DNA of 64,000 nucleotides from a virus. The position numbers and the translations under genes were made by a program. The notes beneath the pieces were generated by a model that saw only the letters and a list, made by a program, of their open reading frames with translations, made no database searches and had not been told where the DNA came from. The DNA is taken from positions 1 through 64,000 of IMG/VR virus record IMGVR_UViG_3300032294_002363; one strand, 5' to 3'. Shown here one piece after another: positions 14,619-57,330 of this stretch (its first letter is position 1; each line of letters starts with the position of its first letter).

Positions 14619-14765
14619 ATGAGACTTATATTGATTTTGAGTTTAATGTTATTAGCTGGTTGCACAGAGAACAACTATCAAAGTCGAGAATTACCAACAA
14701 AATATCCAGATACTCCAACAAGTGGAGCGGCTTATGATGCTACTGAAGAATTATATAAAAAATGA
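14619..14765 (+). CDS. 48-aa lipoprotein (absent from ORF track)
   Basis: MRLILILSLMLLAGCTENNYQ...LYKK*; lipobox LAGC; ATGA overlap with the next gene. Confidence 0.75.
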   Translation: MRLILILSLMLLAGCTENNYQSRELPTKYPDTPTSGAAYDATEELYKK

Positions 14766-19930: not shown

Positions 19931-20974
19931 ATGAAATTAAGATTAAAAAATACCCCAGAACAAATCGAGCTTGTAAAAGCCATGGGAAGTCGTGAAGCAT
20001 CTGTTTCTAAAGAAGCTACAGAAGCTTTCGCAGCTTTCATTGGCCCAGTAGTAAATAAAGTGCTAATGCAAGCCGCAACAGCCTCTGCGATCTACACAGA
20101 TCTTCCTTTCGATGAAGACGATAGTCCATCGATCCCATTAGATCTTTATCATGATCAAGGTCAAGGCCACGTAACCACTTGGAGTCAAAACGTAGCTGGT
20201 GGTCTTCCAACTTCTACAGTTGAAGGATTCAGCGAAATGAAAGTTGCAACCTATCGTTTAGATAGCGCTGTCAGCTTCCTAAAGCGTTATGCTCGTCGTG
20301 GTCGTCTCGACGTAGTTAGCAAGGCAGTAGAGCGCATGAGCAATGAAGTTCTTGTCAAACAAGAACGTAATGCTTGGGCAGTTCTCCTCAAGGCTCTAGG
20401 TGAAAGTGGTAACGTAATTGATGTTAACGAAACAACAGTTGCATTTACCCTAACTCATCTTAACAGATTACTAACAGCATTCAAGAGAAAGAATACTTCT
20501 TATGCTGGCGGTTCTTCTGTAGAAACCTATGGTCTAACAGATCTATTTGTTAGCCCAGAAGTTAAACAAGATATCCGTGCATTTGCTTACAATCCTGTAA
20601 CAAATACAAATACAGATCTTCCAGCTGGCGTCCGTGAAGAAATTTATCGTGGCGCTGGAACTCAAGAAATCTATGGAGTAACCATCCATGATCTAGTTGA
20701 ACTTGGTAAAACACAAAAATATCAAGTACTCTTCTCAGAGTTCTATTCTTCTAACTGGAATTCCACAAACAATGAGCTTATCATCGGCTTGGATCTTACA
20801 AAAGACGCTTTTGTACGCCCAGTCGCTCGTCAAGCTGAATCTGGTGGTACATTCACAGCTATGCCAGACGATCAATTCTTGGCTCGTGCAGACAAGATTG
20901 GTTTCTATGGTTCACTAGAAGAAGGTCGCGCTTGCATCGATGCTCGCGCTATCGCAGCAGTAAACATTTACTAA
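19931..20974 (+). CDS. major capsid protein (HK97-like, inferred)
   Basis: 347 aa, AAAGGAG RBS, high-expression codon bias, position after scaffold/decoration, terminator downstream. Confidence 0.85.
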   Translation: MKLRLKNTPEQIELVKAMGSREASVSKEATEAFAAFIGPVVNKVLMQAATASAIYTDLPFDEDDSPSIPLDLYHDQGQGHVTTWSQNVAGGLPTSTVEGFSEMKVATYRLDSAVSFLKRYARRGRLDVVSKAVERMSNEVLVKQERNAWAVLLKALGESGNVIDVNETTVAFTLTHLNRLLTAFKRKNTSYAGGSSVETYGLTDLFVSPEVKQDIRAFAYNPVTNTNTDLPAGVREEIYRGAGTQEIYGVTIHDLVELGKTQKYQVLFSEFYSSNWNSTNNELIIGLDLTKDAFVRPVARQAESGGTFTAMPDDQFLARADKIGFYGSLEEGRACIDARAIAAVNIY

Positions 20975-40162: not shown

Positions 40163-41206
40163 ATGGCAAGAAAAAGAGTAATTTATCAATCCGAAGCACT
40201 TTTCGTAGGTGGTACAGGAAGTGCACAAACACTAAGTCAAGTTAATCGTGTACAAAGCTGTAACTATAGCTTTGAAATTCCACGCCAAGACGTTAATCAA
40301 TTCGGACAATTAGCAGCAATTGATCGTATCATTCTAGAACAACCAACAGTAAACCTAGACTTCTCTTACTACCTAAATAGTGGTGAGAACGAAAGAAACT
40401 TAGGTCTTACAGTTGGTGACGGAACAAAATCTGCTCTAGCCGATATTTTAACTGGCGACGTAGGAAATAAAAATTATTATATTCTAGTTTCCCCAGAAGG
40501 AACAGACGCAAACATAGATACAACCATAGCAACTGGTCAAGGCAAAACAATTGGTCTAGGAAACGGATTCTTGAGTTCCTACAGCATCGAAGCAGCAGTC
40601 GGAGGAATTCCAACTGTTACAGTTAATGCTGAAGCTCTTAACATGCGTTTCTACAATCAAGCCACAGGCAATATCCCAACTGTAAATCCAGAAGACGGAA
40701 GCAATGCAGCTGGAACATTCGCTATACCAACACCTGTCACAGGCGCAGGATTCTCCGCTCTCCGCCCAGGAGACGTAGACGTAACAATCACAGCCTCTAA
40801 TGCTAAGGGTGTTACAATCGCAGATTTGAAACCACAAACCGCCACAATCTCATTTGATATTACTAGAGAGCCAATCCAAAAACTAGGTAGTAGATTCGCC
40901 TTTACAAGAGAAATCACATTCCCACTCACAGTAACAATGAGTGTAGATGCAATCCTCGGAGAAATCGAAGCTGGTAACTTGGCAGATACAATCAATGACG
41001 ACTCATCTTCATTCGATGTATCAGTTCAATTAAATAAACCAAACACAAATGATCGCTCTGTTAAGTACACATTGAAAGGTTGTAAGCTAGACAGCCAAAC
41101 CTTCTCAAGTGCAATCGGCGACAATAAAAGTGTTACCCTTGAATTTAGTACTCAAATCGGTGGTCCAACAGATACAGTCCGAGGCGTATTCATACAAGGC
41201 CCATAA
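40163..41206 (+). CDS. major tail (tube) protein
   Basis: RVQSCNYSFEIPRQDVNQFG tube-like motif, strong RBS, high-expression codon bias, terminator downstream. Confidence 0.85.
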   Translation: MARKRVIYQSEALFVGGTGSAQTLSQVNRVQSCNYSFEIPRQDVNQFGQLAAIDRIILEQPTVNLDFSYYLNSGENERNLGLTVGDGTKSALADILTGDVGNKNYYILVSPEGTDANIDTTIATGQGKTIGLGNGFLSSYSIEAAVGGIPTVTVNAEALNMRFYNQATGNIPTVNPEDGSNAAGTFAIPTPVTGAGFSALRPGDVDVTITASNAKGVTIADLKPQTATISFDITREPIQKLGSRFAFTREITFPLTVTMSVDAILGEIEAGNLADTINDDSSSFDVSVQLNKPNTNDRSVKYTLKGCKLDSQTFSSAIGDNKSVTLEFSTQIGGPTDTVRGVFIQGP

Positions 41207-41232
41207 GTTAATTTAATTAACTTAAAAACTAG

Positions 41233-41257
41233 AAGCCCCGCGATAAGCGGGGTTTTT
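41233..41257 (+). terminator. rho-independent terminator after tail tube gene
   Basis: GCCCCGC-GATAA-GCGGGGT followed by T run. Confidence 0.85.
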
Positions 41258-41258
41258 A

Positions 41259-41264
41259 GTGTAA
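41259..41264 (+). promoter_or_regulatory. GTGTAA motif immediately after terminator
   Basis: 36 nt upstream of ATG 41301; leader contains three AGG. Confidence 0.65.
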
Positions 41265-41300
41265 TCATATATAGGAATAAGGTTTGCAGAGGCAAAAGTT

Positions 41301-41588
41301 ATGATAAACTTAAAGCTAAAAGATTTATTGGCATTTCAGATAAATCGAAATATTATTAATCTATACAAAAGGTATTTAAATTTATTAGAAGATCTTCAAG
41401 AAGAGCATGTTAATATGTTAAATAAATTAAATAAAAAGGTTGATCTTGAAACATTAAAAAATGTTGATTATTTTGATGAAAATAAATATAATTATATAAG
41501 GAAAAGAATATTAGATCTAGGAAACGAAACTTATAGAGAAATAGAGAAGACATTAGAATTCCTAGATGATAAAAACCATGAAAAATAA
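41301..41588 (+). CDS. hypothetical protein
   Basis: 95-aa helical ORF. Confidence 0.7.
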   Translation: MINLKLKDLLAFQINRNIINLYKRYLNLLEDLQEEHVNMLNKLNKKVDLETLKNVDYFDENKYNYIRKRILDLGNETYREIEKTLEFLDDKNHEK

Positions 41589-41832
41589 ATATATTAAATA
41601 TAATATAGAAGAGGTTATTAAAGCTAACTTAGATGTACAATCAATTCAAAGAAAGCTTAGGAATGACTTTGGTCTACTAAAGTCATCTTTTGATGTTTTA
41701 ACTAATTCTAAATATATATCTAATTATTTAAATTGGCCAGAAGAAAAAAAGAAAGAATTTATTATAACAATTGGCGGCAAAGTTAATTTTAAAAAGACAA
41801 AATGTTTTATAGAAGGAAAATTAGGGAGTTAA
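41566..41832 (+). CDS. hypothetical protein
   Basis: 88-aa ORF; true start may be the second Met. Confidence 0.65.
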   Translation: MIKTMKNKYIKYNIEEVIKANLDVQSIQRKLRNDFGLLKSSFDVLTNSKYISNYLNWPEEKKKEFIITIGGKVNFKKTKCFIEGKLGS

Positions 41833-41835
41833 TTT

Positions 41836-42624
41836 ATGAAAATAGATAAATATTTATATGAATTTAAAGTGAATAGAGAAAAAGAGATTGAAGAAATCGA
41901 AACATCTAAAAATGATCAAGGTCAAGAAGTAAAAACTATTAAAAAAGTAAAAACTACAACCCCAGTTACATTTAGAATATTAAAACCAAATAGAAGACTA
42001 TTTGATGAGGCTGAATTATTTTATGGCATCAAACTATCAGAGGGTATTAAAGCTGGTCTTTTAACTAGATCTTTGCTCGCTAAAAGATATTCAAATGATG
42101 GCGGAGCTATGAGCGATCCAGAAAAGGAAAGATATGCAAAACTATATATAGAACTATATAGATTGCAAAATGACTTACAAAGATTTGAAGTTAATTTAGA
42201 GAAATTAACGAAAGATGAACAAACTAAAAAGATTGCTGATATTTTAAATGAAATTACGATTACAAAAAGAGAACTTCAAGAAATCGAGAACTATCACTCT
42301 ACATTATTTGATCAAACCGCTGAAAATCGTGCTAGAAATCAAACTATTATGTGGTGGGTATTAAATCTTTCTTATTTTTCAGAGAATGAGAAGGACTTTG
42401 TTCCATTTTTTGGTGAAGGAGATCATTCTAAAAAGATAGATAAATATGATGAGTTCGAAGAAGCTGGCGATATATTCTTTTCAGAATCCATGTCGAAACT
42501 AGCATATTTTATAAGTCTATGGTATATGGGCAAAGCTAATACATTAGAAGATTTTAAAAATCTAGAAAATCTATTCCAAAATTCGAGTGAATTAAAAAGT
42601 AATAATATAGAAAATAGTGAATGA
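41836..42624 (+). CDS. putative tail assembly chaperone
   Basis: Between tube and TMP; helical/coiled-coil. Confidence 0.55.
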   Translation: MKIDKYLYEFKVNREKEIEEIETSKNDQGQEVKTIKKVKTTTPVTFRILKPNRRLFDEAELFYGIKLSEGIKAGLLTRSLLAKRYSNDGGAMSDPEKERYAKLYIELYRLQNDLQRFEVNLEKLTKDEQTKKIADILNEITITKRELQEIENYHSTLFDQTAENRARNQTIMWWVLNLSYFSENEKDFVPFFGEGDHSKKIDKYDEFEEAGDIFFSESMSKLAYFISLWYMGKANTLEDFKNLENLFQNSSELKSNNIENSE

Positions 42625-43615
42625 AATTAATCAAGAGCAAAATCTTGTTAGAAAGATATATAAAGATTTAATTCTTGGATTTTCTATTTTTTATAAAAAA
42701 GATAAAGTTTTCTCATTTAAACATCTTTCAGAGCCTGAGATATGTGGGGCGAATGAAGTATATTTAAAAGCTTTTAACGAAGCAAGATACCAAGGCCTTT
42801 TAGATAGAGAAGAAAAAGTTAAAATTCTATGCGATCAAGGTGTTTGGTCTAAAGATAAAGAAGATGAGATTAAAAAAATAATTGAAGAGATCGATGTTCT
42901 ACAGAATACATTAAAAAAATTAATAATTAAATCTCAGATACAAAGAATAAGAGATCAGATTTCAAATCTAGAAAAGAATCTAAATAAAATAAGTAAAGAG
43001 AAGGAAGAACTGTTAGGATTAACAGCTGAAAACTATGCTTATAAAAAATCTAATGAATTCGTAATATATCTAAGTCTTTATGATAAAGAATTCAAAAGAA
43101 TGTTATTTAATAGCGAAGAAGAATTTTCAGAATTAAATGAAATAGATCTAATAGATTATATTAATTGTTATAGAGAGTTTATAGATACTTTTAAAATTAA
43201 TAATCTAAAAAAGATTGCTGTATCTCCATTTTTTATGAATAGCTTTTTTTTATGTGAAGATGATCCATTCATATTTTTTGGTAAGCCATTAGTTAATCTA
43301 ACTCAATATCAAATAGAACTATTTGGCGTAGCTAGAAACTATAAATATTATCTTACTAAAAGCGGGGAGAATCCTCCTAATAATATAAAGAATTTAGATG
43401 AATTAGTAAACTGGTATGAAAATCGTCAAGCAATCAATAATCTAAAGGAGAAGAATAAAGATAAACTTGGTCAAAGCTATATAGGAGCTACAAAAGAAGA
43501 GCTTATGGCTATGACCTCTGATTCTAAGGACGAAGTAGTAGATTTAACTAAAGAAGCTCAAAAGGCTGGTGGAGATTTATCATTTGAAGAGATATTAAAA
43601 ATTCATGGAATCTAA
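42617..43615 (+). CDS. putative second tail assembly chaperone
   Basis: GTG start, immediately before TMP. Confidence 0.5.
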   Translation: MNEINQEQNLVRKIYKDLILGFSIFYKKDKVFSFKHLSEPEICGANEVYLKAFNEARYQGLLDREEKVKILCDQGVWSKDKEDEIKKIIEEIDVLQNTLKKLIIKSQIQRIRDQISNLEKNLNKISKEKEELLGLTAENYAYKKSNEFVIYLSLYDKEFKRMLFNSEEEFSELNEIDLIDYINCYREFIDTFKINNLKKIAVSPFFMNSFFLCEDDPFIFFGKPLVNLTQYQIELFGVARNYKYYLTKSGENPPNNIKNLDELVNWYENRQAINNLKEKNKDKLGQSYIGATKEELMAMTSDSKDEVVDLTKEAQKAGGDLSFEEILKIHGI

Positions 43616-43632
43616 TTAATATTTAAATTTTT

Positions 43633-43638
43633 GTGTAA
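43633..43638 (+). promoter_or_regulatory. GTGTAA motif upstream of tape measure
   Basis: 23 nt upstream of ATG 43662; AAAGGGG RBS between. Confidence 0.7.
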
Positions 43639-43661
43639 TAATACTAAAGGGGTTTACTCTT

Positions 43662-46600
43662 ATGGCACAAGGTAGAGATCAAATTATTGTTGATGTATTA
43701 GGCAATACAAAGCCTTTAGAGAAAAATATATCTAAAGTAGCAAATCAAGCCTTAACATTAAACACTAAGAATTTCTCTCAACCTTTAGGTAAAATTACAG
43801 GGCAATTAGGCGAGTTTGAGAAATCATTGGCCGCATCTAATGCTCGTGTTATTGCATTCGGCGCTTCCGCTGGAGCCATATACGCTGTTCAAAGAGCATT
43901 TGAGGCGACAATTAGAACTGTAATAGATGTAGAGAAATCCTTAGCAGACATTAATGTAATATTAAACGTTAGTCAAAAAACCTTAACAAGTTTTGGTAAT
44001 AGTCTTTTCGATATTGCAAAGAATACAGGTTTATCTTTCTCAGAAGTAGCAAAAGCAGCTACAGAATTTTCTAGACAGGGTTTAGGTATTGAAGATACAT
44101 TAAAAAGAACCAGCGATGCATTAATATTAACAAGATTAAGTGGTTTAGATACAGTAAGTAGCGTAGAAGCTTTAACTGCGGCAATAAATTCTTTCTCTAA
44201 CTCAGCCTTAACTTCTACAGAAATTGTAAATAAATTAGCTGCTGTAGACGCTGCATTTGCAGTTAGTTCTGCAGATCTAGCAGAAGCAATTAAAAGAGTA
44301 GGTAGCTCTGCTGATGACGTAGGGGTAAGCTTTGATCAACTAATTGGTTTAGTAACATCCGCACAACAAATAACTTCAAGAGGTGGAAGTGTTATCGGTA
44401 ACAGCTTTAAGACGATTTTTACAAGATTGCAAAGACCAAAAACTTTAGAAGCCTTAGAGCAGATTGGAGTAGCTACAAAAGATCAAGAAGGAAATATCCT
44501 ACCTCTTGTACAGATCCTTAACTCTTTATCTCAAACATATGATAAGTTAAGTTCCGTACAGAAAGCTCAAATTGCTGAAACGGTTGGCGGTGTTTTCCAA
44601 ATCAATATTTTAAAGGCAGCTTTAGGAGATCTATCTAAAGAATATTCTATTTACTCTAGAGCTTTAGGAATATCTTCTGGAGCTACAGATGAAGCTACAA
44701 GAAGAAATGAAATATTAAATCAAACACTAGCCGCAACAATTAATAAAACCGTAGTAAATTTACAAAACGCTGCAACAGATATAGGTAATTTAGCTCTTGC
44801 CCCAGCGCTTCAAAGAGCTTTAGGTGGACTAAATTATGTTCTAGAAAATTTTGGAACAGATGAAAGCGAAGGCATAGGAACAAAGATTGGAGAAGGATTA
44901 GCTAGAGGTTTAGGAAACTTCTTAAGTGGTCCAGGATTATTAATTGGTGTTGCAGCTCTAATTAAGATCTTTGAAAGATTGACAGTCTTTACGGCTGACG
45001 CTTTTAAGCAGTTGACAGGATTAAATACTCAGACCGCAGAACAAAGATCTTTACAGGCTCAGATTTTAAATTTAATAGGAAGAAATCCTCAGATTATACA
45101 ACAGATAAATAGTGGCAATTTAGACACAGCTAATTTACATAAACAGATATTATCTTTGATTGAACAAGAAACTGTAGCAATGCAAAGACAAGTCAGCATT
45201 GCTGATTCCTTAACAAAAAGTTTAATGGCTGCAGGAGTTAGAATACCTCAGACTGGCCCAATGAGAGGTACTGCAGTTAGAACAAAATCATTTGGTTTTG
45301 TACCTAACTTTAGCGCAAATCAAGAAATTATGGGTGCTTTTGCTGGTGGATATATGCCAGGACAAGTTAAAAAGATGGTTATTCCTAACTATGGAGCAGT
45401 TACGTATAATAGCGCAGAGAAAGTAAAAAGATTTAATGGCATGAATCAACCCGCCATTATGCCTCCACAAGAAAGTCTTGCTGGAAAAAATTATAAGAAA
45501 AATTTTGAAGCAGCACATGGATTTAATCCTTATGCAAATAAGGGCTTTATTCCTAATTTTGCTACATTATTAGGAAATCCCTATGAACAGAATTATGTAA
45601 AACTTCAAGGTGAACTTAAAAATATAGCAAGTTATGGTTCAGCAGGAATATCAATAAGTAGAATTGGCAAAGCCCTTGGCGTTGTTAGAGGGCCAGAAGG
45701 AAACTTTTATGTTCCATTTAATAACTATGAAAAACTACTCAAAGCTTCAAAGCAAGATTTAGAAAAAAATGCTGCAGGAAGAGGAAAAAGATTTGAAGGT
45801 AAGATAGAACCATACGCATTAGTTTATCCAAGCTTTGGTATGTCTAATCCATTCCCAAGCGCAGGAAGAGCTGGTGGTAAATCTATAGGTTTTGATGTTG
45901 TGCCATTCCCAGGAAATATAAAAGGTCAGAGCACAAATATCATTGGCCCAAGTCTTTATAAAAAATCGTTAAAAGCACTTGTAGATAATGCTTCTGAATT
46001 CTTAGTTAATCTTGCTGGAGTAGATCCAGATGTCATAAATGATCAAAAATTTAAAAATTATTTATATAGTAATATAAGCCAAGATCAAATCGGAACTTTA
46101 GTCGGTAATGCTTTTGAGGGTGGAATACTTGCCTCTTTAAATATTGTACCAAATGATAGATCAAGAATCTTAGACTTAAGTAGAGAAGAAATTAAAAAAC
46201 TTGGTGAAACGTTTAAGATATCTTCTCTAACATCAGGTAAGTATTTAGGTGGAGATTTTAAAAATGCATTAAGCCCATTTAATTTAGATAGTATGGCTGG
46301 TAAAATATTAAATACTAGATTAAATAAAAATTTTGGATTTATTCCTAATTTTTCTCCAATTAATAAAGCTTTCCAAACAGAGAAAAGTCTTGGCGGATCA
46401 CCAGTTCTAGATTATCAATCTGGAGTAGGATTATACGTTAGAGATAGTAAAAGACAGCCAAATTTTGCTGCAGTAAAAAGAGACCATCCAGAAGGTTTAT
46501 CTAAAGCTATAAGTAATTCATATGCTATGCAAAAGGGAATGGCAGCATTTGGATTTGTACCAAATTTTGTTCGTCTTCCAGAGACAATACCAACCGCTCA

Positions 46601-49550
46601 AGCTGAGATGTTAAAAGCTGGTGTATTAAGAGGCGGATTTACAGAAGATATAGCCATGAGAGAACTAACTCAGGAACAAGAACAACTTACGGAAACAACA
46701 AGAAAAACAAGATTTGATTTAGATAAATTCAGAGAAAAAGCCATCTTTGCCTCTTTTGGTCTTTCTATAGCTGGATCATTCTTCTCTGAAGTTGCAGGAG
46801 AAAACGAAGCTCTTAAGAAGAATATAAACAATTTTTCCCAAGGACTTTCAACCGCTTTAACAGCAGTATCTTTACTTCCTGGTCCAATAGGTCTAGCTGT
46901 AGGAGGAATAACCGCTTTATATTCTGCGGCAGTATTTTTAGCAAAAACATTTAGAGATAATGGAGAGGATATTACCAAAAATTTTGAAAGAGTAAAAGAA
47001 GAGAATACAAATTTTACTAATGCTACTTCTACATATTCACAAACTTTACAAAAATTAAATGACGCATATAGTTCTGCCAAAACGCCTATAGAAACAATTG
47101 TAAAATTAAATGAAGATTTAGCTAAAGCTGCAATGGATTTACCAGAAAAATATAGATTACAATTATTATCTATTACAGATAATACAAAATTACAAGATGA
47201 GATTAATAGAATCCAAGGATCATTAGCGCGAGAACAAAGGAATCTTGAATTTGCTACATCTGTTAACGCAAAACTTCAAGAAGGCGCATTTAGCGCACCA
47301 AGAGTATTTCAGACAGGAGGAGCTTTAAGAGGAGCAACAAGAGAAATATTTGGAGGGTTTTCTGAGCGAGGTCAAATAAAATTTTTAAGAGATATAAATT
47401 CTGAATTTTTAAAATTAAATCAACCAGATCTTATTAACTTCTTAGAAAAATCTTATGGCTTGAATAGAGATATCGCTGATGTATTATCTAGGACTAATCC
47501 ACAAGAATTTAAAGATCTAACTACTGGATTATTCCTATATATTGAAGGCTTAAAAAGATCTCAAAATGAATTTAAGGCAACAGAAGATCTAAGAAAAGAA
47601 GAAGCTAAAACTCAGAAAGCTTTAGAGAGACAGACGCTAAAAGCTAAATTAGCTTTAGATACATTAAATGATTCATTGGTAACATTAGTTAATGCATCTG
47701 TAAGATCTGAAGCATTTAGACAAAATTTTGGAAATACAAGAGGAGCAAATGCTAGAGAGACTCAAATATCTAGAGCTGGAGGACTTCTTGATCTAGCTGA
47801 ACTATTTACATCTCAAGAATATGTAACAGGAACTAGAGGTAGATTAGCAGAACTAAGTGCTTTAGAAACATATGGCACACAGGCGAGAGAAATAACTTCC
47901 TCTACTCGTCAATCTATTTTAGAAATTGGATCAAATCTATTAAGAGATCTAAGAAGGCCAGGACAAGAAGAACCTCAAGCTAGAGGTTTAATAGAATCAT
48001 TTGAATCTAAACTCTTAGATATAAGTAAGCAGAATATATCTGCTAATGAAACTGCTGAAAAATTAAATGAAGCAATAGGTTCAATATTTGGCTCTTCTTT
48101 TGATAGATCTACAGAAGTGCAATCAAAGGTGCAGGATGAAGTTAGACGACAGAATGAAAAATTAGCTTTACTAAGTGAAGAACAAAAGAAAAGCAATGAG
48201 ATTGCTAGATCAAATCTTTCTATTCAACAAAAGATTTTACAGGCTCGCAGAGATATAGAAACTTTTGGAGGTGTCCAAGGATTTTTAGATCCAGAGTCTC
48301 TTAAGTCAAGTTTTGATAACTTCCAAAGAAGTCTAAATCTATTTCGTAGTGGTCGATCAAATTTAGCGGAAAGAGGTCGTGGTGCCGCTGGTTTATTATC
48401 TGAGACAATAAGATTTGCTGGAGGAAGTATTGGGCCTGGACTAGATCGTGGATTAGGATCATTAAGAGCCGCAGCTATTACAGGAAGAGCTTCAGAATTG
48501 AGATCTCAGGCTAGGGGATTAGCTGGACAAGCTCCTCTTGGATTAAAGCCAGTGTTTAGAGATATAGCGGCTCGCTCAACAGAGATTGCAACAAGGCAGA
48601 TAGATAATTTAATAAAAAGTGAGAATATAGGAGAAAATGTTGATCAAATAGCGAAATTATTACGCAGTATTGAGTCTGCTCAAGGGACAAATGTAATTCC
48701 AGAATTAAATAATACAATTATATCTGCACTACAAGCTGTCCAACAGGATCTTACTCCATCAATAGATGATCTAAAATTATCTTTAGATAAAGCTTCTCAA
48801 ATATTTACTCAAAGAGAAACATATCAAAATATCGGAGCAGAGATTAGTAGAGCAACATTAACAAAAACTGGAGGAGAGTTTAGAGTAACTCAAGCTGAAA
48901 CTGCACTTCCAAATATAATCAAGAGATTACAAGAAGAATTTCCATCTGCAATTGAAGGAGGCGTACCAAGTTCTAGAAGACAGTTCCTTGAGCAATTTAG
49001 CCCAATACTTCAAAGAGCATTTAGCGAAGGAAGACCTATCGGGTTAAGAGAATTACGTGGCGAGAATATGCCAGCTGGATTAAGACCAAGGATTGATGAT
49101 AAAGGAGCTTTTGCTCAGTTACTACAAGAATATAATAATCAAATATCTATTATAGAAACATCCAGACAATCCATACAGGCATCAAGTCAAGCCCTTGATC
49201 AATTAAATGCTAGAGCTACAGATACAGCTGCAGCTTTATTATCTCTTGGTCAAAATGTTACTCCAATTGGTGCTTTAGCGGGTCCACAAGTTGTGCAGGG
49301 CAGTGTTGACTTGAATATACCTAATAATTTATTAGAGCTTAATGTCGGTGGTAATATATCTTTTGATGGGGGAAGAGTCGAAGTAGTTCTTTCTCCAGAG
49401 TCTGACTTAACAACCTTAGTAACACCCATTGTCAATGATTTCCTTAGTCAAGCTAAAAAAGATCTTCAAACAGAATTTAATAACCAAATATTTAAAGTCC
49501 GCGAAGAGGCTGGACTAAGGAGGCAAGCAGTACCACTATTAGAAAGATAA
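43662..49550 (+). CDS. tail tape measure protein (1962 aa) with GF[IV]PNF-delimited insert
   Basis: TP901-type core (EVAKAATEFSRQG...AVSSADLAEA...IGNSFKTIFTRL), hydrophobic segments, long helical C-terminus. Confidence 0.92.
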   Translation: MAQGRDQIIVDVLGNTKPLEKNISKVANQALTLNTKNFSQPLGKITGQLGEFEKSLAASNARVIAFGASAGAIYAVQRAFEATIRTVIDVEKSLADINVILNVSQKTLTSFGNSLFDIAKNTGLSFSEVAKAATEFSRQGLGIEDTLKRTSDALILTRLSGLDTVSSVEALTAAINSFSNSALTSTEIVNKLAAVDAAFAVSSADLAEAIKRVGSSADDVGVSFDQLIGLVTSAQQITSRGGSVIGNSFKTIFTRLQRPKTLEALEQIGVATKDQEGNILPLVQILNSLSQTYDKLSSVQKAQIAETVGGVFQINILKAALGDLSKEYSIYSRALGISSGATDEATRRNEILNQTLAATINKTVVNLQNAATDIGNLALAPALQRALGGLNYVLENFGTDESEGIGTKIGEGLARGLGNFLSGPGLLIGVAALIKIFERLTVFTADAFKQLTGLNTQTAEQRSLQAQILNLIGRNPQIIQQINSGNLDTANLHKQILSLIEQETVAMQRQVSIADSLTKSLMAAGVRIPQTGPMRGTAVRTKSFGFVPNFSANQEIMGAFAGGYMPGQVKKMVIPNYGAVTYNSAEKVKRFNGMNQPAIMPPQESLAGKNYKKNFEAAHGFNPYANKGFIPNFATLLGNPYEQNYVKLQGELKNIASYGSAGISISRIGKALGVVRGPEGNFYVPFNNYEKLLKASKQDLEKNAAGRGKRFEGKIEPYALVYPSFGMSNPFPSAGRAGGKSIGFDVVPFPGNIKGQSTNIIGPSLYKKSLKALVDNASEFLVNLAGVDPDVINDQKFKNYLYSNISQDQIGTLVGNAFEGGILASLNIVPNDRSRILDLSREEIKKLGETFKISSLTSGKYLGGDFKNALSPFNLDSMAGKILNTRLNKNFGFIPNFSPINKAFQTEKSLGGSPVLDYQSGVGLYVRDSKRQPNFAAVKRDHPEGLSKAISNSYAMQKGMAAFGFVPNFVRLPETIPTAQAEMLKAGVLRGGFTEDIAMRELTQEQEQLTETTRKTRFDLDKFREKAIFASFGLSIAGSFFSEVAGENEALKKNINNFSQGLSTALTAVSLLPGPIGLAVGGITALYSAAVFLAKTFRDNGEDITKNFERVKEENTNFTNATSTYSQTLQKLNDAYSSAKTPIETIVKLNEDLAKAAMDLPEKYRLQLLSITDNTKLQDEINRIQGSLAREQRNLEFATSVNAKLQEGAFSAPRVFQTGGALRGATREIFGGFSERGQIKFLRDINSEFLKLNQPDLINFLEKSYGLNRDIADVLSRTNPQEFKDLTTGLFLYIEGLKRSQNEFKATEDLRKEEAKTQKALERQTLKAKLALDTLNDSLVTLVNASVRSEAFRQNFGNTRGANARETQISRAGGLLDLAELFTSQEYVTGTRGRLAELSALETYGTQAREITSSTRQSILEIGSNLLRDLRRPGQEEPQARGLIESFESKLLDISKQNISANETAEKLNEAIGSIFGSSFDRSTEVQSKVQDEVRRQNEKLALLSEEQKKSNEIARSNLSIQQKILQARRDIETFGGVQGFLDPESLKSSFDNFQRSLNLFRSGRSNLAERGRGAAGLLSETIRFAGGSIGPGLDRGLGSLRAAAITGRASELRSQARGLAGQAPLGLKPVFRDIAARSTEIATRQIDNLIKSENIGENVDQIAKLLRSIESAQGTNVIPELNNTIISALQAVQQDLTPSIDDLKLSLDKASQIFTQRETYQNIGAEISRATLTKTGGEFRVTQAETALPNIIKRLQEEFPSAIEGGVPSSRRQFLEQFSPILQRAFSEGRPIGLRELRGENMPAGLRPRIDDKGAFAQLLQEYNNQISIIETSRQSIQASSQALDQLNARATDTAAALLSLGQNVTPIGALAGPQVVQGSVDLNIPNNLLELNVGGNISFDGGRVEVVLSPESDLTTLVTPIVNDFLSQAKKDLQTEFNNQIFKVREEAGLRRQAVPLLER
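45291..46568 (+). repeat. four GF[IV]PNF peptide repeats in TMP
   Basis: FGFVPNF 45291, GFIPNF 45543, FGFIPNF 46332, FGFVPNF 46548. Confidence 0.9.
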
Positions 49551-49577
49551 TAAAAGGAAAAAGGATTTAAAAGGATT

Positions 49578-51218
49578 ATGGCTTATACATTTATAGATGC
49601 AACACTTCTTGGATATCAAGTAAATAGAAATTACTTGGGGGAAGGTCTATTTGTATTAAACACAACTAAAAATATTTCTATTGAGGGAATCTTTGATAAT
49701 AGAAAATCTAATAGTGATGCAGAAGGCGTTAAAGAGACATATGAAGATATAACAGGTTTATTAACTGGTATAGTTAATGCTTATGATCGCGTCGTAGTAA
49801 ACGGATATAATCTAGGCACTGGTAAAGTTCTAAGCGTTTCTTTCCCAGAAGAAAATCCAATTAGGATTGGCAAATATAGATATGAAATTGAAATTATAGA
49901 AAATAGTGATTTTAGCAATATGCCATCTGATGGTATATATGGATCAAATTTAAATACTTTTAATGATAAAATAACAGAATTAGATGAATCTTTTAATTTC
50001 AATAATGAGGAGAATGGTGATTTTTCTTATAATCATGATATTTCTATTCAATATTATGATGATGGTTCAGACCTAATACAAAAATCAAAAAATGCTGCTA
50101 ATATCATATTCAACGACGCTTTAAACATAGGTTTAATTGGACAATTCTCTGGATATTACAATGTGCTTAGAAATAAGAAGAATTATTTTTCAGAGTCTTA
50201 TGATCTTATAAATAAGAGATGCAATTTTACAAAAAACATATTAATTAATAGAAATTATAATACAAATTATACAACCTCTTTATCTCATTCACTTAGCTTA
50301 GAAGCAAATGGAAAAATAACTGTACAAGAAGAAGGCGTAATTAAAGCTTTAGATAATACATTGCAATATACAGCAGAGAATTATTTTCAAGCAGAGTTAA
50401 ATGCATCATATTCACGTTGTCAATCAATATTTGATACTTATTCAGAAAAATATAATCTTGGCATAAAAGATTCTCTCTATAATCAACCATTCTCTTTAGG
50501 TAAGACATTTAATATAATTGATAATTCTTTGCAATATCAAGTTTCTTATGTAAATGATCCAAGTTTTGAAGGTAATATCATTAATACTTATACAATCAAT
50601 GTTGATAGAGATATTGAAGATCTTATAAACTACACGGAACAAGGCACTTTAACTCAAGTCGGTCAGATTGGAACTATTACAAATTTAAGTCTAATTAAAA
50701 CAAAATATCAAGCAGCTAAAACAAGAGCTTCTATTGAATACCCAGCATTAAAGCTAAAAAATACTTCATTTAGTGCGGGTAGTTTATCAAATAACTCTAG
50801 TATAGTTTATAATAATCAATTTTCTTATTCGATAGAAAGAACAAGCGATAATTCTATAATAGAGAATGATCCAAACTATAAAAGTCTTTCAATAAAAATT
50901 AATGATCAAGCTCCATACAATCTATATAAAGAATATATTATAGCGAATCGTGAACCAAAAAATATACTGTTTGTTTCTGGAAATCAAGTCGAAATGGGAG
51001 CAAGAAGCGTAACTGTGGAGGGAACTTTGGTAAGACCAACTGTAAATCCATGGTTAAGTCCTATAGCTTTTCCATTGACAGATTTAAAAAGTAAAGCGAT
51101 CTCTGGCGCGTTAAATCTTGTTTCAGATGAAGCTTTTATTGATACTATTTCATATAATTATAATTCAGACAATAACTTTTCTTTTAATCTGAATTTAAAA
51201 TATCTAAAAGTGGAGTAA
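49578..51218 (+). CDS. tail tip / distal tail protein (putative)
   Basis: First gene after TMP; beta-rich, Asn/Tyr-rich. Confidence 0.6.
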   Translation: MAYTFIDATLLGYQVNRNYLGEGLFVLNTTKNISIEGIFDNRKSNSDAEGVKETYEDITGLLTGIVNAYDRVVVNGYNLGTGKVLSVSFPEENPIRIGKYRYEIEIIENSDFSNMPSDGIYGSNLNTFNDKITELDESFNFNNEENGDFSYNHDISIQYYDDGSDLIQKSKNAANIIFNDALNIGLIGQFSGYYNVLRNKKNYFSESYDLINKRCNFTKNILINRNYNTNYTTSLSHSLSLEANGKITVQEEGVIKALDNTLQYTAENYFQAELNASYSRCQSIFDTYSEKYNLGIKDSLYNQPFSLGKTFNIIDNSLQYQVSYVNDPSFEGNIINTYTINVDRDIEDLINYTEQGTLTQVGQIGTITNLSLIKTKYQAAKTRASIEYPALKLKNTSFSAGSLSNNSSIVYNNQFSYSIERTSDNSIIENDPNYKSLSIKINDQAPYNLYKEYIIANREPKNILFVSGNQVEMGARSVTVEGTLVRPTVNPWLSPIAFPLTDLKSKAISGALNLVSDEAFIDTISYNYNSDNNFSFNLNLKYLKVE

Positions 51219-51220
51219 AT

Positions 51221-53257
51221 ATGTCTACTAATATTATAAAATATAACGATAATTATCTTCCTTATCCAACTCCATTAGTTACATTAGATAGAGAAAATAT
51301 ATATCTAAATCAATATTGGGGTAATTCAAATTCTATATCTTTAAATGGAATTATTACTGGAAATTTTGATCAAATAAAGACTGGACAAAGTGGCATATTG
51401 AATATATTTAATAAGAATTTTGGAAATTTTGAAATATATGAAGCTACAGGTGCAACAGGCTTTAACCTAAATAGAAGTGGAACTTTCGTTCCTTTTTCTC
51501 CATATTTTAATAATCTAACTGGTGTTTATGTGCCAAAAAATTCTACTATTATTGTTAAAATAAGTGGAAGTTATGGAGGTTTTCCAATATTTTTCTATAG
51601 AAATACATCTTTAGTTAATATTGGTAATCTTTTTACTTTATTTAAAATTAATTATTATTCTGGCGCATCAGAAACTGTATTTCCCCAACCAATTCCATAT
51701 ACGGGATTTGCTGTTACTGCATCTCAAAGTATTCCAAGTGATGATAAATATATTGATCCAACCTTTAATGCTAAAGGTATATATTCTGGAAATATTGGAA
51801 ATAATAATTATATATCATTTGCAAGTTTTGGTGGTGGTGGTGGTACTCCAATAGTTAGATTAGAAGTTAATAGCTTTGATGCGGAAAAAATTTATGAAAA
51901 TAGTGGAATTATAGTAAGGTCAATTAATTTTGAGGAATCTAATTATTCAAATTTAATAAGATATGAAATTGGATTAGGATCAACATCTTTAAGTGGAAAT
52001 GTAACAAATCCAACTAACGAATATTCTTTTACAGAAAATGAAAATAAAACAATCTCTTTATCTCATAGAGTTTCTGCTCAAGGAATTAATACAAATTTAA
52101 GCTCTGGTAAGTCAAATGCAATGGATAACGCAATTGCTTTCGTCAGATCTTACACGGGTTTATCTAATTTACCATCAACAAGATTTATATCTGGCGCGTC
52201 AAATAAATTTTTTATACAGAATTTTTCAGAATCAATTGATAGATTAAATGGAATTTATTCTGTAGAAGAATCTTATATCAGTAATCTATTAAATACTGGT
52301 TTATCTGGTAATCTATCATATACAGTTGATATTGTCTCTGGCGCAGAGTCTAATTCTATACAGATAAATTTGAGAGGTGAATACAAAGGACCAAAAGATG
52401 GCAATATAATTAATCTAAGAAATAGCCTAAATGTGACAGGACTTATAAGTGGCGCATATTCTGGCTATTTTAATCCAGTTCCAATCCAATACAATATATC
52501 AGAAAATACTGGACAAAATTTAATTAATTTTGATTATTCTTTTGATAATATCAACTTGCCAAATCCATATTATCGTTATGAAACAAGTATCTCCAGAGAT
52601 GAAATGCAACAACTTTACAATATCCAAGTCCGCGGTGAAATAATCGCGAGAGGAAATAGAAGATATAGATATTTTCTTTCCACAGGAAATATAACAAATC
52701 TAACTGGACAATTCTTGCGTATTGCGAGCGGAGTATTAACTGGATTTAAAGACTTCAATTCAGACACAACATCTTCTAATTTAAGATTATTAAATACAAA
52801 TATCGAAAGAAATCCTAACGAAGGTATAGTATCAGCTAACGCAGTTTATGATGATAAATTTATACCTACTGGAAATTTTGTAGATGCTAGTTATGATATA
52901 TCTGTTAATGGCCCAGTTTGGTTTATGAATAATCAACCAACTTGCAATGTTAAAGGGTTTCATATAATTAATGATTTTGATATTACAACATTACCAAGAT
53001 TAAATGTAAATACTTCTTTCAGATATAAAAATATAACAGGGATTAATAATGAGAATCTATTAAGATCTCAGGTTAAAGATATAACAAATAATATATTACC
53101 GAATAATTATAATTTCAATATTCAATTACAAGACTCAGAATCATATAGTAAAAAATATAATAGTATTAATTCATTATCGGAAATATCATATAATTTAGAG
53201 AAAATTGATATATCTAATCAAAATGGCTTATTACCAAAATTCAATACCATAAATTAA
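51221..53257 (+). CDS. tail tip protein (putative)
   Basis: Beta-rich; PYPTPLV N-terminal motif; similar pattern to the previous gene. Confidence 0.55.
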   Translation: MSTNIIKYNDNYLPYPTPLVTLDRENIYLNQYWGNSNSISLNGIITGNFDQIKTGQSGILNIFNKNFGNFEIYEATGATGFNLNRSGTFVPFSPYFNNLTGVYVPKNSTIIVKISGSYGGFPIFFYRNTSLVNIGNLFTLFKINYYSGASETVFPQPIPYTGFAVTASQSIPSDDKYIDPTFNAKGIYSGNIGNNNYISFASFGGGGGTPIVRLEVNSFDAEKIYENSGIIVRSINFEESNYSNLIRYEIGLGSTSLSGNVTNPTNEYSFTENENKTISLSHRVSAQGINTNLSSGKSNAMDNAIAFVRSYTGLSNLPSTRFISGASNKFFIQNFSESIDRLNGIYSVEESYISNLLNTGLSGNLSYTVDIVSGAESNSIQINLRGEYKGPKDGNIINLRNSLNVTGLISGAYSGYFNPVPIQYNISENTGQNLINFDYSFDNINLPNPYYRYETSISRDEMQQLYNIQVRGEIIARGNRRYRYFLSTGNITNLTGQFLRIASGVLTGFKDFNSDTTSSNLRLLNTNIERNPNEGIVSANAVYDDKFIPTGNFVDASYDISVNGPVWFMNNQPTCNVKGFHIINDFDITTLPRLNVNTSFRYKNITGINNENLLRSQVKDITNNILPNNYNFNIQLQDSESYSKKYNSINSLSEISYNLEKIDISNQNGLLPKFNTIN

Positions 53258-53258
53258 T

Positions 53259-55043
53259 ATGAATATACAATTTTTAACTGGATATTTAGAGAAGAACCAA
53301 AGAAATAGTGGTTCTTTAGAGATATATTATGAGTTTACTGGAATGTCTGGGCTGTTCGTTCCAAATCAATTATATCAAGGTCAAACTCAATTTTATAACA
53401 TCCCTGGTGGATTTGGCGTTAATGGTCAATATAGTCCAGGTATTTTTTCTTCTTCATATCAAGAGTCTGGATTTACTGGCTCTGGAGTTTTTGATGGCAT
53501 AACAAATTTAAGAGTAATAAATCAATTAACTGGAGATAGTATATCTTTATTTTATAATTTTTCTTCTTATAGTTGTGCTAAAAGTTTTAATATAGGAAGT
53601 AAATCAATCACTATTCCAACTGGATATATACAGATACTTAGTTATATTGAATCAAAATCAAATTCTACTCCATTTGAAATTATTCTAGGCATAAATGATG
53701 CTTATAAATTAACTTTAGAATTTTCTGGAAGCACTGGTCAAAATAATGAAATACATAAATCTATAAATCTTTCAGAGTTATCATTACAAAATCCAGTCGG
53801 TTTAAGACTAAATAAAAATAATATAGAATATACATATTTTGATATTATTGAAGATGAAATAAATAACCAAAGCATAAATCTAACTGGCAATTTTTTTAAT
53901 CAAAGTAAGAACATATATATTGGCAATTTCCCAACTGGTAAAAGCAGAGCAAATTATACTGGATTCATTGGAATTATTGATGATTTTGTTGCCTGTGATG
54001 AATATTTTGATTCAAATCTATCTATGGGATTATCAAAGCTATTTATAAAGACTGGAGAATCTATAGAGCTAAGAAATATAACTGGAGTAAAATATAATAT
54101 CATACAAAGTGGATTTTTGAATCCTACTGGTATAATAGGAACAGGAATTACTGGCTATAGAATTGTTCCATCTGAGGATTCTTTTGGATCAACAACAGTA
54201 TATATTAGCTCAGGGGTTTCTGGCGTACTAACTGGAGAAAAGATAGAATATCGCGTAGTCTCTCAAGAGCAATATTCTATAAAACAACAAGTTGTTCAAA
54301 CTGATCTCTTTGACGAAGACTACGCTTCAAGATTTACTAAAAATTATATCATATTTACTCCAAAGTTAGATTCTACTGATATATTTGAAGTTCAATTATA
54401 TAACGATTCGCAAAGCAAGATAGAGTTTCCAGAATATGGAATCCTAAATGATATTTATGTTAATCAAGATAATCTTACAAATAAAAATGTATTAATATTT
54501 TTTAATGGTATAAATATATCTTCTGGAGATTATACGATTACAAGTAATGGCAATAAGTTTACTATCAGTTCATATAATAAAGATATTGATGATACAGTAT
54601 CTTATGTTTTATCAAGTTATACTGGGATTGAGAATTACGCATTTTCTAACACTACTGGAAGCGTTCATAATGGTTATGTTTTTGTTGGAAAACTAAATAA
54701 TAAAAAATATGATGTATTCTTAAATGGCCAAAAGCTAATATCTGGAGAAAATTATCTTATATCTGGTTTAGATTATAATTTATATTTAAAAACAGATCTT
54801 GCTGCTGGAGAAGTATATACTTATGAAGATAATTTTATAAGCGGGACAACAGGCACAAATATTAAATTATATAATCCTAGTATAAGTTATAATAATGAAA
54901 AGATATGGGTTAATGGATTATTCCAAAATAAAAATGAAAATTATCTATTGACTTCGTGCGTTAATACTATTCTACAAGCCACCGGAGATATTGAAATCAA
55001 AGGGGAAAGTATATTTGATAATGAATATCATAGATTCATTTAA
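53259..55043 (+). CDS. tail structural protein with LamG-like domain
   Basis: IYIGN...FIGIIDDF LamG-like C-terminal strand; VFLNGQKL repeats. Confidence 0.55.
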   Translation: MNIQFLTGYLEKNQRNSGSLEIYYEFTGMSGLFVPNQLYQGQTQFYNIPGGFGVNGQYSPGIFSSSYQESGFTGSGVFDGITNLRVINQLTGDSISLFYNFSSYSCAKSFNIGSKSITIPTGYIQILSYIESKSNSTPFEIILGINDAYKLTLEFSGSTGQNNEIHKSINLSELSLQNPVGLRLNKNNIEYTYFDIIEDEINNQSINLTGNFFNQSKNIYIGNFPTGKSRANYTGFIGIIDDFVACDEYFDSNLSMGLSKLFIKTGESIELRNITGVKYNIIQSGFLNPTGIIGTGITGYRIVPSEDSFGSTTVYISSGVSGVLTGEKIEYRVVSQEQYSIKQQVVQTDLFDEDYASRFTKNYIIFTPKLDSTDIFEVQLYNDSQSKIEFPEYGILNDIYVNQDNLTNKNVLIFFNGINISSGDYTITSNGNKFTISSYNKDIDDTVSYVLSSYTGIENYAFSNTTGSVHNGYVFVGKLNNKKYDVFLNGQKLISGENYLISGLDYNLYLKTDLAAGEVYTYEDNFISGTTGTNIKLYNPSISYNNEKIWVNGLFQNKNENYLLTSCVNTILQATGDIEIKGESIFDNEYHRFI

Positions 55044-55045
55044 TA

Positions 55046-55051
55046 GTGTAA
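55046..55051 (+). promoter_or_regulatory. GTGTAA motif
   Basis: 29 nt upstream of ATG 55081; leader has three AAGG units. Confidence 0.7.
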
Positions 55052-55080
55052 ATATATCAAGGAATAAGGAGTAAGGCAAA

Positions 55081-57330
55081 ATGCCTATAAAATCTATAGA
55101 AAAGATCAAGATAGGGAATTATCCATATGGAAAGTTTGCTAATGGTTATATATATTCCGCGCAAATTGATCAAGGATATAGTGAAAATGCTAATAAGCTA
55201 ACTATAGATATTGTTTATGAAAATAATGCTGTTATAAATTTACCACAAAAAAATTTAACTACATCATATAGAGTAGAATTTGGCGATATAGTATTTCCGC
55301 AAATGTATTTTATAGGTCACTCAAAAAGCGTAGGCGTAAATGAAGAAACGATAACGTGTACTTTTGTTGATGGATCTATTTTATTAGATAGATATTTTGT
55401 TGGATTAACTAATCGACATTATAAAATAAATGAGCAATCTCAAAATTTTAATGTTGGTGTTTTTTGTGCGAATTGTGACAATACATTAGGAGTTACGACT
55501 GGTAATGTTACAAGAAACCTTGCTAATTCACCAAATATTGTAGTAAATAATTTATTAGTTGTTGGTGATGAAGAATTTATAGATCAAGCTTGTGATATAC
55601 CAGATGTCAAATATAATTTTACTGATTTATTAATTACGATGGGTAAAATACCAAACTTTATTTTCCAGAATTTCAAAGATATAAATTCATCTTATAAGAC
55701 ATCGTATACTGGAACTCTAAGAGAAGTTTTATCTAATTGGTGTAGTGATTTTGGTTTTAGTTTTTATTGGGATTTTATAACTAATAGTTTGATATGTATT
55801 GATTTAAGAAATCCAGTAGATTTGACTCCTGTAGAAAATTTAATAAATGAAAACTTTAATCAAAATAATGTAGATGCAAATTTACCTATATCAAGCTTCT
55901 CTGAGGATGAATCTTTAGAGGGCACATATCAACAAGATAATATTGATTACGTTTTAAAGCCTTCAAGACAAAAAGAAAGAGAGATTAAAGATTTTTTTCC
56001 TATTGAATATGAAGCCGTACCAGTTTCCACCTCATTTCCTTTGGAAGCCTTAGCTTTAGCAAAATATAATTCCGAAGCATTTACATTATATTGTTTAGAG
56101 AATAATATTAACTCATTAATTGGGTTTGATCCAATTTATGTTGGAATAAATACTTATGTTTTATCGACAGCCTTACAAAATATAGCAGAATATGCTGCAG
56201 ATGGACGAGCAATTATTAAAATAGGAAGATACAATAGAGACAAAGATGAGTCCGCGGCAAATATAGCTTCTTTAGCTGCGGAAGATATAGGTAGATATTA
56301 TTATAATTTAAATTATGTTCTGTGGAAAGATCTTATCTGTACTGCATATTCTAAATATAATATTGATACCAGTTATGAACCTCAGCCAATTTTTGGAGCC
56401 AGACCTTGGGCAAAGTATGGTGGAAATTTTCTTTTACCAATAGGTAATTCTTGGTTAATTGAAAGAAGTCCAGCCTATCAAGTTATTAATTCTCAAAATT
56501 TTTCTATACAAGGATTAAGTCCAATTTATATGGATATTGAAGGAGAAGTAGCAGATCAAGTAAGAAATGCTCTTCTGCAAGTAAATCCTAATGACACTCA
56601 AGCTGATAGATATCGAGGTTTAACATTGATTGCGTATAAACCTTATCTATATGTAAATACAAACTTTAATTATTGGAATTCTTCAGAAGAAAATTTTACT
56701 AATGCACAATATCAAACGAATGAATTACCAGAATGTCAAACTGTTTGTGAAAAAGATGTCAGTGTTGAAATATGTAGGAAAGAATGTACTACTTTAGTTG
56801 CCCCTGGTAATGGTTTAATAAGTAAGCTTTCAAGAGCCTTTACATTTACAAATGGTTTAAATGGATCTCAAATGACTATTGTACTACCATCTCAACAAAG
56901 ATATTTAGGATATATAAAAGCTGAGGGAAGTTTTACATATACCGAACCAGGCATCAAGCAAATGCAATCTAATTCAAATTTTTCTGCAGATCCTAATGTT
57001 ATGTCCTATTCTATAAATTTAAATGACATTACTACAGATGAACCCTCTGTAGGATCGATTAATTTTAATAATATTGATCAGAATAGTGATGGATTAGATA
57101 TTAAACAAAAAAATCCAAAGAAGAATATAGCTTTAAAAATTATAGGGATGAATTATGGTCTTCTTAACAACTACCTTAACCCTGAGTCAGGCTTAACAAG
57201 TTTTAACGTATATCTTAATGAAAATGGTGTTTTCACTGATTTAAATTTTGAAAATAGACCAGCAAAAAGACCAGCAGCAGAAGCAATCATGCAAAAGGTT
57301 GGCCCACAGAAAACTAGGATTATAAAATGA
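55081..57330 (+). CDS. putative tail hub/Tal-like protein
   Basis: YTGTLREVLSNWCSDFGFSFYWD resembles hub-protein signature; position in the tail-tip cluster. Confidence 0.5.
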   Translation: MPIKSIEKIKIGNYPYGKFANGYIYSAQIDQGYSENANKLTIDIVYENNAVINLPQKNLTTSYRVEFGDIVFPQMYFIGHSKSVGVNEETITCTFVDGSILLDRYFVGLTNRHYKINEQSQNFNVGVFCANCDNTLGVTTGNVTRNLANSPNIVVNNLLVVGDEEFIDQACDIPDVKYNFTDLLITMGKIPNFIFQNFKDINSSYKTSYTGTLREVLSNWCSDFGFSFYWDFITNSLICIDLRNPVDLTPVENLINENFNQNNVDANLPISSFSEDESLEGTYQQDNIDYVLKPSRQKEREIKDFFPIEYEAVPVSTSFPLEALALAKYNSEAFTLYCLENNINSLIGFDPIYVGINTYVLSTALQNIAEYAADGRAIIKIGRYNRDKDESAANIASLAAEDIGRYYYNLNYVLWKDLICTAYSKYNIDTSYEPQPIFGARPWAKYGGNFLLPIGNSWLIERSPAYQVINSQNFSIQGLSPIYMDIEGEVADQVRNALLQVNPNDTQADRYRGLTLIAYKPYLYVNTNFNYWNSSEENFTNAQYQTNELPECQTVCEKDVSVEICRKECTTLVAPGNGLISKLSRAFTFTNGLNGSQMTIVLPSQQRYLGYIKAEGSFTYTEPGIKQMQSNSNFSADPNVMSYSINLNDITTDEPSVGSINFNNIDQNSDGLDIKQKNPKKNIALKIIGMNYGLLNNYLNPESGLTSFNVYLNENGVFTDLNFENRPAKRPAAEAIMQKVGPQKTRIIK

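Follow-up and report, generated by a model that had tools for sequence, protein, structure and literature searches.

A repeated hexapeptide fences off folded modules, the largest of them exchanged between relatives, inside the tape measure protein of an uncultured phage

The viral DNA considered here, consisting of positions 1 to 64,000 of the IMG/VR record IMGVR_UViG_3300032294_002363 (and referred to below, over that entire length of 64,000 nucleotides, as the window), reads as the structural region of a phage, with a guanine-plus-cytosine (GC) content of approximately 30% and with nearly all of its genes on the plus strand. The open reading frame (ORF) at 43662..49550 (+) encodes a protein of 1962 residues that serves an uncultured, long-tailed phage of low GC content as its tape measure protein. 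An earlier note on this DNA had already assigned the product in that manner, and the assignment is borne out by a PhageMin_Tail domain (PF10145) at residues 118-310 (44013..44591, +), matched by Pfam with an E-value of 7.8e-31 and a score of 108 bits against a gathering cut-off of 33.2, and by matches to 16 PHROG families named 'tail length tape measure protein', down to an E-value of 7e-51. The great length of the protein, the presence of hydrophobic segments, and the position of its gene within the tail gene block, followed downstream by large structural-type ORFs (one with FG-GAP repeats), are likewise those of a tape measure protein. A Kyte-Doolittle hydropathy scan over 19 residues located one such segment, a candidate membrane-inserting helix that is conserved in the family consensus, at residues 416-445 (44907..44996, +; peak 1.73), and a further two to three at residues 1027-1045 and 1062-1097 (46740..46952, +; peaks 1.47-1.93). 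Because hydrophobic segments lie on both sides of it, the block of modules that separates them is a soluble stretch held between probable membrane-inserting helices.

That block is punctuated by four copies of the hexapeptide GF[IV]PNF, at the four places (residues 545, 628, 892 and 964) where the earlier note had recorded them, with motif-start spacings of 83, 264 and 72 residues: GFVPNF at residues 545-550 (45294..45311, +; conserved in relatives), GFIPNF at residues 628-633 (45543..45560, +), GFIPNF again at residues 892-897 (46335..46352, +), and GFVPNF at residues 964-969 (46551..46568, +). The composition of the protein itself would lead one to expect 1e-4 copies by chance, and only two of 20000 shuffles of the tape measure protein contained even one. 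The strict motif is absent from every other ORF of the window, for which reason a general protease site, common to other virion proteins, was rejected as an explanation; the motif string was also not found in the literature searched. The codons of the motif vary synonymously (GGA/GGT, ATT/ATA, CCT/CCA), much like background usage, which indicates that the constraint acts on the peptide rather than on the DNA; conservation of the motif at the DNA level, as a recombination signal, was rejected on the same grounds.

In an AlphaFold2 model of residues 535-980 that was built with 59 homologs (mean predicted local distance difference test score, pLDDT, 79.8), three confident folds are separated by stretches of pLDDT below 50 that coincide with motifs 2, 3 and 4 (model residues 96-103 for motif 2 and 356-362 for motif 3), and motif 1 lies within a block of mean pLDDT 68. 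The motif is always found at module borders, in exposed linkers. The hexapeptide may serve for cleavage, for the docking of chaperone or tube proteins, or simply as a tolerated seam. No natural splitting of the gene at the motif was found among the relatives. The sole apparent case, a split 32 residues after motif 4 in the locus L057 (L057 7400-7434), was rejected as a change of frame at an A10 run, downstream of which tape-measure-like sequence continues in another frame; that frame change is either an assembly error or slippage.

The three folds are designated modules A, B and C. Module A (77 residues, 551-627; 45312..45542, +; pLDDT 81-88) is predicted to consist of a helix, four short strands and a second helix, and is the best conserved of the three, with 41-89% identity in relatives. 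Module C (66 residues, 898-963; 46353..46550, +; pLDDT 81-86) is predicted to form a helix, a beta-hairpin and two further helices, contains a conserved RDHPEG, and displays an identity of 50-90% in most relatives. Between them lies module B (258 residues, 634-891; 45561..46334, +), which, when modelled alone with 69 homologs, reached a pLDDT of 91.4 and a predicted template modelling score (pTM) of 0.87, and in which a variable N-terminal region of approximately 150 residues precedes a conserved C-terminal core. The earlier note had called the stretch from motif 2 to motif 3 non-helical; in the model it is mixed alpha/beta rather than a coiled coil.

No Pfam or PHROG family covers any of these modules (the whole protein was searched against both collections, and each module singly against Pfam), searches of PDB sequences with single sequences and with profiles returned nothing for them, and no relationship between modules A and C was detected by BLAST or hhalign. 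Foldseek comparisons of the models of residues 535-980 and of module B against the PDB, and of the module B model against BFVD, returned nothing at E <= 0.001, the rows listed being spurious superpositions with root-mean-square deviations of approximately 20 A; top scores in the ESM Atlas were 0.85-0.86, below the threshold for a lead. As modelled, therefore, module B is an orphan fold with no match among solved structures.

The distribution of this architecture was established from two sets of relatives. A word-indexed search with residues 520-1000 produced 814 protein matches, all of them long and carrying the name or type of a tape measure protein; in IMG/VR, an alignment-based scan produced 241 relatives on viral contigs of up to 172 kb, a single-sequence scan of the same collection having returned nothing. 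The layout of the motif was examined in 120 listed homologs from the first set and 80 loci from the second, and in nearly all of them G[FY][IV]PN[FY] recurs at nearly fixed places, with gaps of approximately 77, 227-284 and 65-70 residues. A tblastn search with residues 540-975 against 50,697 GenBank phages found no match. The tape measure family that carries modules A, B and C is thus large, and is known only from metagenomes. Searched with phmmer against 1.84 billion cluster representatives, module B matched only 15 clusters, each a long tape-measure-like protein that aligned at the corresponding place; for this reason the module is not known outside tape measure proteins. Within the clade, 73 of the 80 tape measure proteins have a B-type domain.

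Comparison of close relatives points to the hexapeptide as the place at which module B changes hands. When five homologs (P0036, P0037, P0039, P0040 and P0042) were compared with the window protein by segment-wise BLAST, the breakpoints being mapped on protein sequences and not on DNA, they displayed 88-90% identity over residues 1-520, 73-78% over module A and 77-85% over module C, with no BLAST match over module B. Measured in steps of 20 residues, identity falls from 65-85% to 0-35% in the step that starts at residue 641, and returns to 70-90% from residue 901; at the level of single residues, the breaks lie immediately behind 'GFIPNF A' and exactly at 'GFIPNF SPI', which makes motifs 2 and 3 the left and right recombination junctions of the module. 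Motif 4 is a further mosaic junction: the sequence that directly follows it in the tape measure protein is not that of P0004, P0036 and P0037, these three having another version in common. Other relatives display an intermediate module B identity of 28-71%, with flanks at 81-85%. Since similarity is lost right after motif 2 and regained at motif 3, module B is, as read from these alignments, exchanged at the motif, and the pattern is that of a mosaic of alleles. The earlier note had asked whether the domain between the repeats varies while its flanks stay conserved, as it does in these five homologs. It had also described the hexapeptide as a processing or linker site framing an exchangeable domain; the linker and the exchange are upheld by the low pLDDT (below 50 for three of the four copies) and by the exact coincidence of the motif with the junctions of middle-domain exchange between close relatives, while processing stays among the possibilities named above.

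The exchanged modules are variants of one another. Among 178 unique middle modules, with lengths of 195-337 residues, BLAST distinguished two main classes, of 122 and 41 members, together with a few small ones. In 89 homologs of the window's own class (class 0), residues G815, F818, E819, D838, F851, K867, S877, A879 and K881 are invariant down to approximately 30% identity and D865 is kept in 88%, and together these residues define a core at residues 815-881 (46104..46304, +). In class 1, the elements G..FE, D, F, DAK and I..K are retained. A profile-profile comparison of the two classes with hhalign gave a probability of 72% and an E-value of 3.4e-5 over 108 columns, with the conserved residues in register, and a loose E..D..(D/E)xK pattern occurs in 163 of the 178 middle modules, as against 9% of shuffles. 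Because the classes align with such significance and with the same invariant residues, the swapped B modules are, on this comparison of profiles, divergent homologs of one tape-measure-specific domain family and not unrelated cargo. As the alignments present it, the C-terminal 110 residues or so of the module keep a Glu, an Asp, an (Asp/Glu)-x-Lys and a further Lys, and the N-terminal 150 or so diverge or are replaced.

Some relatives show that the same frame can hold other contents. Extra modules are present within it in L021 (+105 residues), L029 (+155 residues) and L080 (+178 residues), and the protein of L071, a distant relative (IMG/VR contig IMGVR_UViG_3300000116_000020, 4402-11259), contains eight copies of G[FL][VI]PN[FYL] that fence off modules of 119-446 residues (12-446 in a second count), one of which matches the GNAT family (PF00583; E-value 5.1e-5, at 24.0 bits where the cut-off is 20.7) and another PGDYG (E-value 2.8e-5). 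The extra 105-residue module of L021 (7066-7380) has a sub-threshold match to ParB_N (E-value 0.0049); polyvalent phage proteins commonly contain domains of the ParB type. All four of these proteins with extra modules belong to PF10145. The motif also occurs several times in L071, L072 and L080, each of which lacks a detectable B-type module, and its role is for that reason considered to be independent of module B. A number of longer relatives (P0018-P0023, P0050 and others; 2700-3300 residues) carry a PF01832 glucosaminidase or a PF03734 YkuD domain in their C-terminal halves, as well as a repeated GG..DDVPA..GEYV motif; none of these three features is found in the window's tape measure protein.

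Ten proteins of the structural region (14762-17044, 19931-20974 and 40163-60110), including all of the large ORFs that flank the tape measure gene, match no PHROG family at E <= 0.001, and the phage is far from cultured ones. TerL is encoded at 6232-8076 (PF03237), and a weak capsid match is found at 19931-20974. Between the capsid-like gene and the tail genes lies an ORF of 2462 residues (21822-29210, +) with four BppL_N repeats (PF18338, E-value 1.2e-36), the product of which resembles a giant fibre or a baseplate-type protein and is unusually placed for one. Immediately upstream of the tape measure gene, two ORFs of 262 and 332 residues (41836-42624 and 42617-43615, +) overlap by 8 nucleotides in different frames, and may be a pair of candidate tail assembly chaperones, without Pfam support. 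Downstream of it, a protein of 927 residues (57327-60110, +) contains six FG-GAP repeats (PF14312, E-value 1.1e-40) and is probably a part of the distal tail or an adhesin.

Several known systems share parts of this arrangement. MuF-type polymorphic toxins combine a constant virion-protein scaffold with unrelated C-terminal toxins and their immunity genes; the window protein likewise joins a constant virion scaffold to a variable domain, but that domain is internal and belongs to a single homologous family. Motif 3 of mycobacteriophage TM4 is an enzyme-like segment embedded in a tape measure protein, and the pb2 protein of T5 similarly carries a functional, enzyme-like segment inside the ruler that leaves the tail at infection (PMC10038345). 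In pb2 and TM4, however, the embedded parts are wall hydrolases of known families, whereas the modules of the window protein have no Pfam match, include an apparent orphan fold, are fenced by a hexapeptide and are swapped between relatives. Tape measure proteins of the TP901-1 type (PF10145; PMC5099701) have the same N-terminal PhageMin_Tail domain, great length, hydrophobic regions and position in the tail gene block, but no repeated hexapeptide or fenced folded modules have been described for TP901-1, as compared with three such modules here. Finally, the polyvalent proteins described by Iyer et al. in 2017 (PMC5512222) similarly bring together numerous effector-type domains in a single polypeptide, which accompanies the invading DNA and is presumed to be cleaved into separate units. 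Their processing is assigned to embedded metallopeptidases (PMC5512222), none of which is detectable in the window protein, where the separator is instead a fixed hexapeptide; nor did Pfam detect any domain or peptidase of the polyvalent repertoire there, despite its three modules. Tape measure proteins are mentioned 0 times in that paper.

The strict conservation of E819, D838, K867 and (in part) D865 points to an active or ligand-binding site in module B. The earlier note had singled out GNAFE, ILD and GDFK as an arrangement spaced like the active site of a PD-(D/E)xK nuclease; these lie at residues 815, 836 and 864 (46104, 46167 and 46251), as it had placed them, and the E..D..DxK residues of its choice show no variation, or almost none, across 89 and 37 homologs and recur in other classes. 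Their order corresponds to that of PD-(D/E)xK nucleases such as Cfr10I and Bse634I: a Glu on a helix, a hydrophobic-Asp pair 19 residues on, and an Asp-x-Lys on a strand 27 residues further. E819, D838 and K867 are kept in 100%, and D865 in 88%, of the 89 homologs, and the same order is found in class 1. The canonical alpha-beta-beta-beta-alpha-beta core is not evident in module B, two helices separating D838 from the DxK strand. No Pfam match was obtained for any of 62 B members scanned singly, nor any PDB match with profiles; the clan is hard to detect by sequence. In the Foldseek comparison that the earlier note had proposed for this domain, the model of residues 634-891 matched nothing in the PDB or BFVD at E <= 0.001.

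From these observations we draw the following scheme, in which the architecture, the conservation, the swap points and the orphan fold are those demonstrated above, and the catalysis, the delivery and any cleavage are conditional. The ruler is interrupted, between its conserved hydrophobic helices, by the three independently folding modules, joined by disordered linkers, each with a G-[FY]-[IV]-P-N-[FY] that selection on the peptide maintains and that also serves as a recombination seam. Module B would be of an enzyme type, most likely with a metal-dependent phosphodiesterase or nuclease-like site; it would be ejected from the virion together with the tape measure protein, to act at or just inside the host membrane, and its variable half would set the specificity for a target or partner and be swapped in an arms race. 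The hexapeptide linkers would allow the modules to be threaded, docked or cut apart. Precedent for such a departure exists, in that infection drives tape measure proteins out of the tail, those of T5 and lambda being cleaved during morphogenesis (PMC10038345); the T5 protein pb2 is a metastable trimer in the lumen of the tube that is expelled on receptor binding (PMC10038345). The tape measure protein of TP901-1 needs a hydrophobic region, of the kind found on either side of the module block, for infection (PMC5099701). The reading of module B as a tape-measure-specific, enzyme-type module that is delivered at ejection beside membrane-inserting helices, and that has a swappable specificity half, is held here at about even confidence.

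Several considerations weigh against that reading. According to DSSP, D838 precedes a strand of only two residues and two helices intervene before the DxK strand, and the active-site-like residue set is drawn from sequence and DSSP rather than from coordinates. Three copies of a folded domain of 258 residues should not, to judge from the tail structures of T5 and lambda, fit into a tail-tube lumen of approximately 4 nm, from which it would follow that module B is unfolded, staggered, outside the tube, or removed before completion of the tail; the last of these would argue against delivery. In addition, an active nuclease that is expressed late would endanger the phage's own DNA unless it were inhibited or selective.

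Of the competing explanations, the one that survives best, and that we nonetheless regard as rather unlikely, is that module B serves for binding or structure and catalyses nothing: it might hold the leading end of the DNA, dock on a protein of the host inner membrane, or organise the ejected channel. Its invariant charged residues would then represent a ligand site or salt bridges, and its variable half would follow host partners or escape host sensors of tape measure proteins. This is countered by the identity of the residues that are 100% invariant down to approximately 30% identity (a Glu, an Asp, two Lys, a Ser, a Gly, an Ala and two Phe), and by their acid-acid-(acid)xLys order, which active sites display more typically than binding surfaces do. 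An unlikely, bolder proposal is that of a self-separating polyprotein, in which the hexapeptide would be scissile (for instance through an Asn-dependent break at PN|F, or by a virion protease) and which would, on ejection, release into the host a nuclease of new fold, its specificity half swappable, before the phage DNA enters.

The constraint imposed by the tube lumen, within which folded domains should not fit, would be relieved if modules A, B and C functioned in assembly alone, as an intramolecular chaperone or scaffold that keeps the long ruler soluble or recruits chaperone and tube proteins, and that is excised at the hexapeptides before the tail is completed and never reaches the host. 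The location of the motif in exposed linkers and the proteolytic processing of the T5 and lambda tape measure proteins in morphogenesis (PMC10038345) agree with such a role, which we nevertheless consider decidedly unlikely: it offers no obvious reason for the swapping of module B between near-identical phages or for its fast divergence, and the GNAT-like and other modules found in the same frame in relatives resemble cargo more than scaffold. It is very unlikely, in turn, that module B is itself the processing enzyme, a Ser/Lys-type peptidase (S877-x3-K881, with K867 and the acids) that cuts the tape measure protein at the hexapeptides. S877, A879 and K881 are indeed invariant on the last helix (for Ser877, within the window's own class), class 1 retains I..K in the corresponding position, and polyvalent virion proteins carry processing peptidases of their own (PMC5512222); but L071, L072 and L080 repeat the motif without a detectable B-type module, and no peptidase family or fold was matched. 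The cassette of the polymorphic-toxin kind envisaged by the earlier note, with unrelated toxic effectors exchanged on a constant delivery scaffold, is highly improbable, for although the swap falls exactly at the motif and the distant L071 fences unrelated modules (GNAT and PGDYG matches among them) with eight motifs, 73 of 80 tape measure proteins of this clade carry the same B-type domain, its classes are homologous (hhalign E-value 3.4e-5), and it occurs in tape measure proteins only, being found in no toxin system or free-standing gene. No immunity partner of module B was identified, a systematic search for one not having been made.

The first reading is partly supported, and what has emerged from it bears on how tape measure proteins are regarded. 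The customary view of them is that of helical rulers in which a wall-hydrolase motif is the most that is embedded. In the family described here, which spans hundreds of uncultured phages, a constant peptide 'fence' sets folded modules apart within the ruler, and the largest of these is swapped between near-identical phages and combines a predicted orphan fold with an active-site-like set of residues. If these modules are delivered, then the tail lumen would be a general route for ready-made, exchangeable proteins, parallel to the one that polyvalent head proteins offer, and in the hexapeptide nature would have provided a portable junction through which cargo could be engineered into phage tails; if they are instead removed, they would represent a new assembly device. 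Should the proposal of a self-separating polyprotein prove true, it would establish a tail-lumen delivery route for exchangeable enzymes that is common in uncultured aquatic phages.
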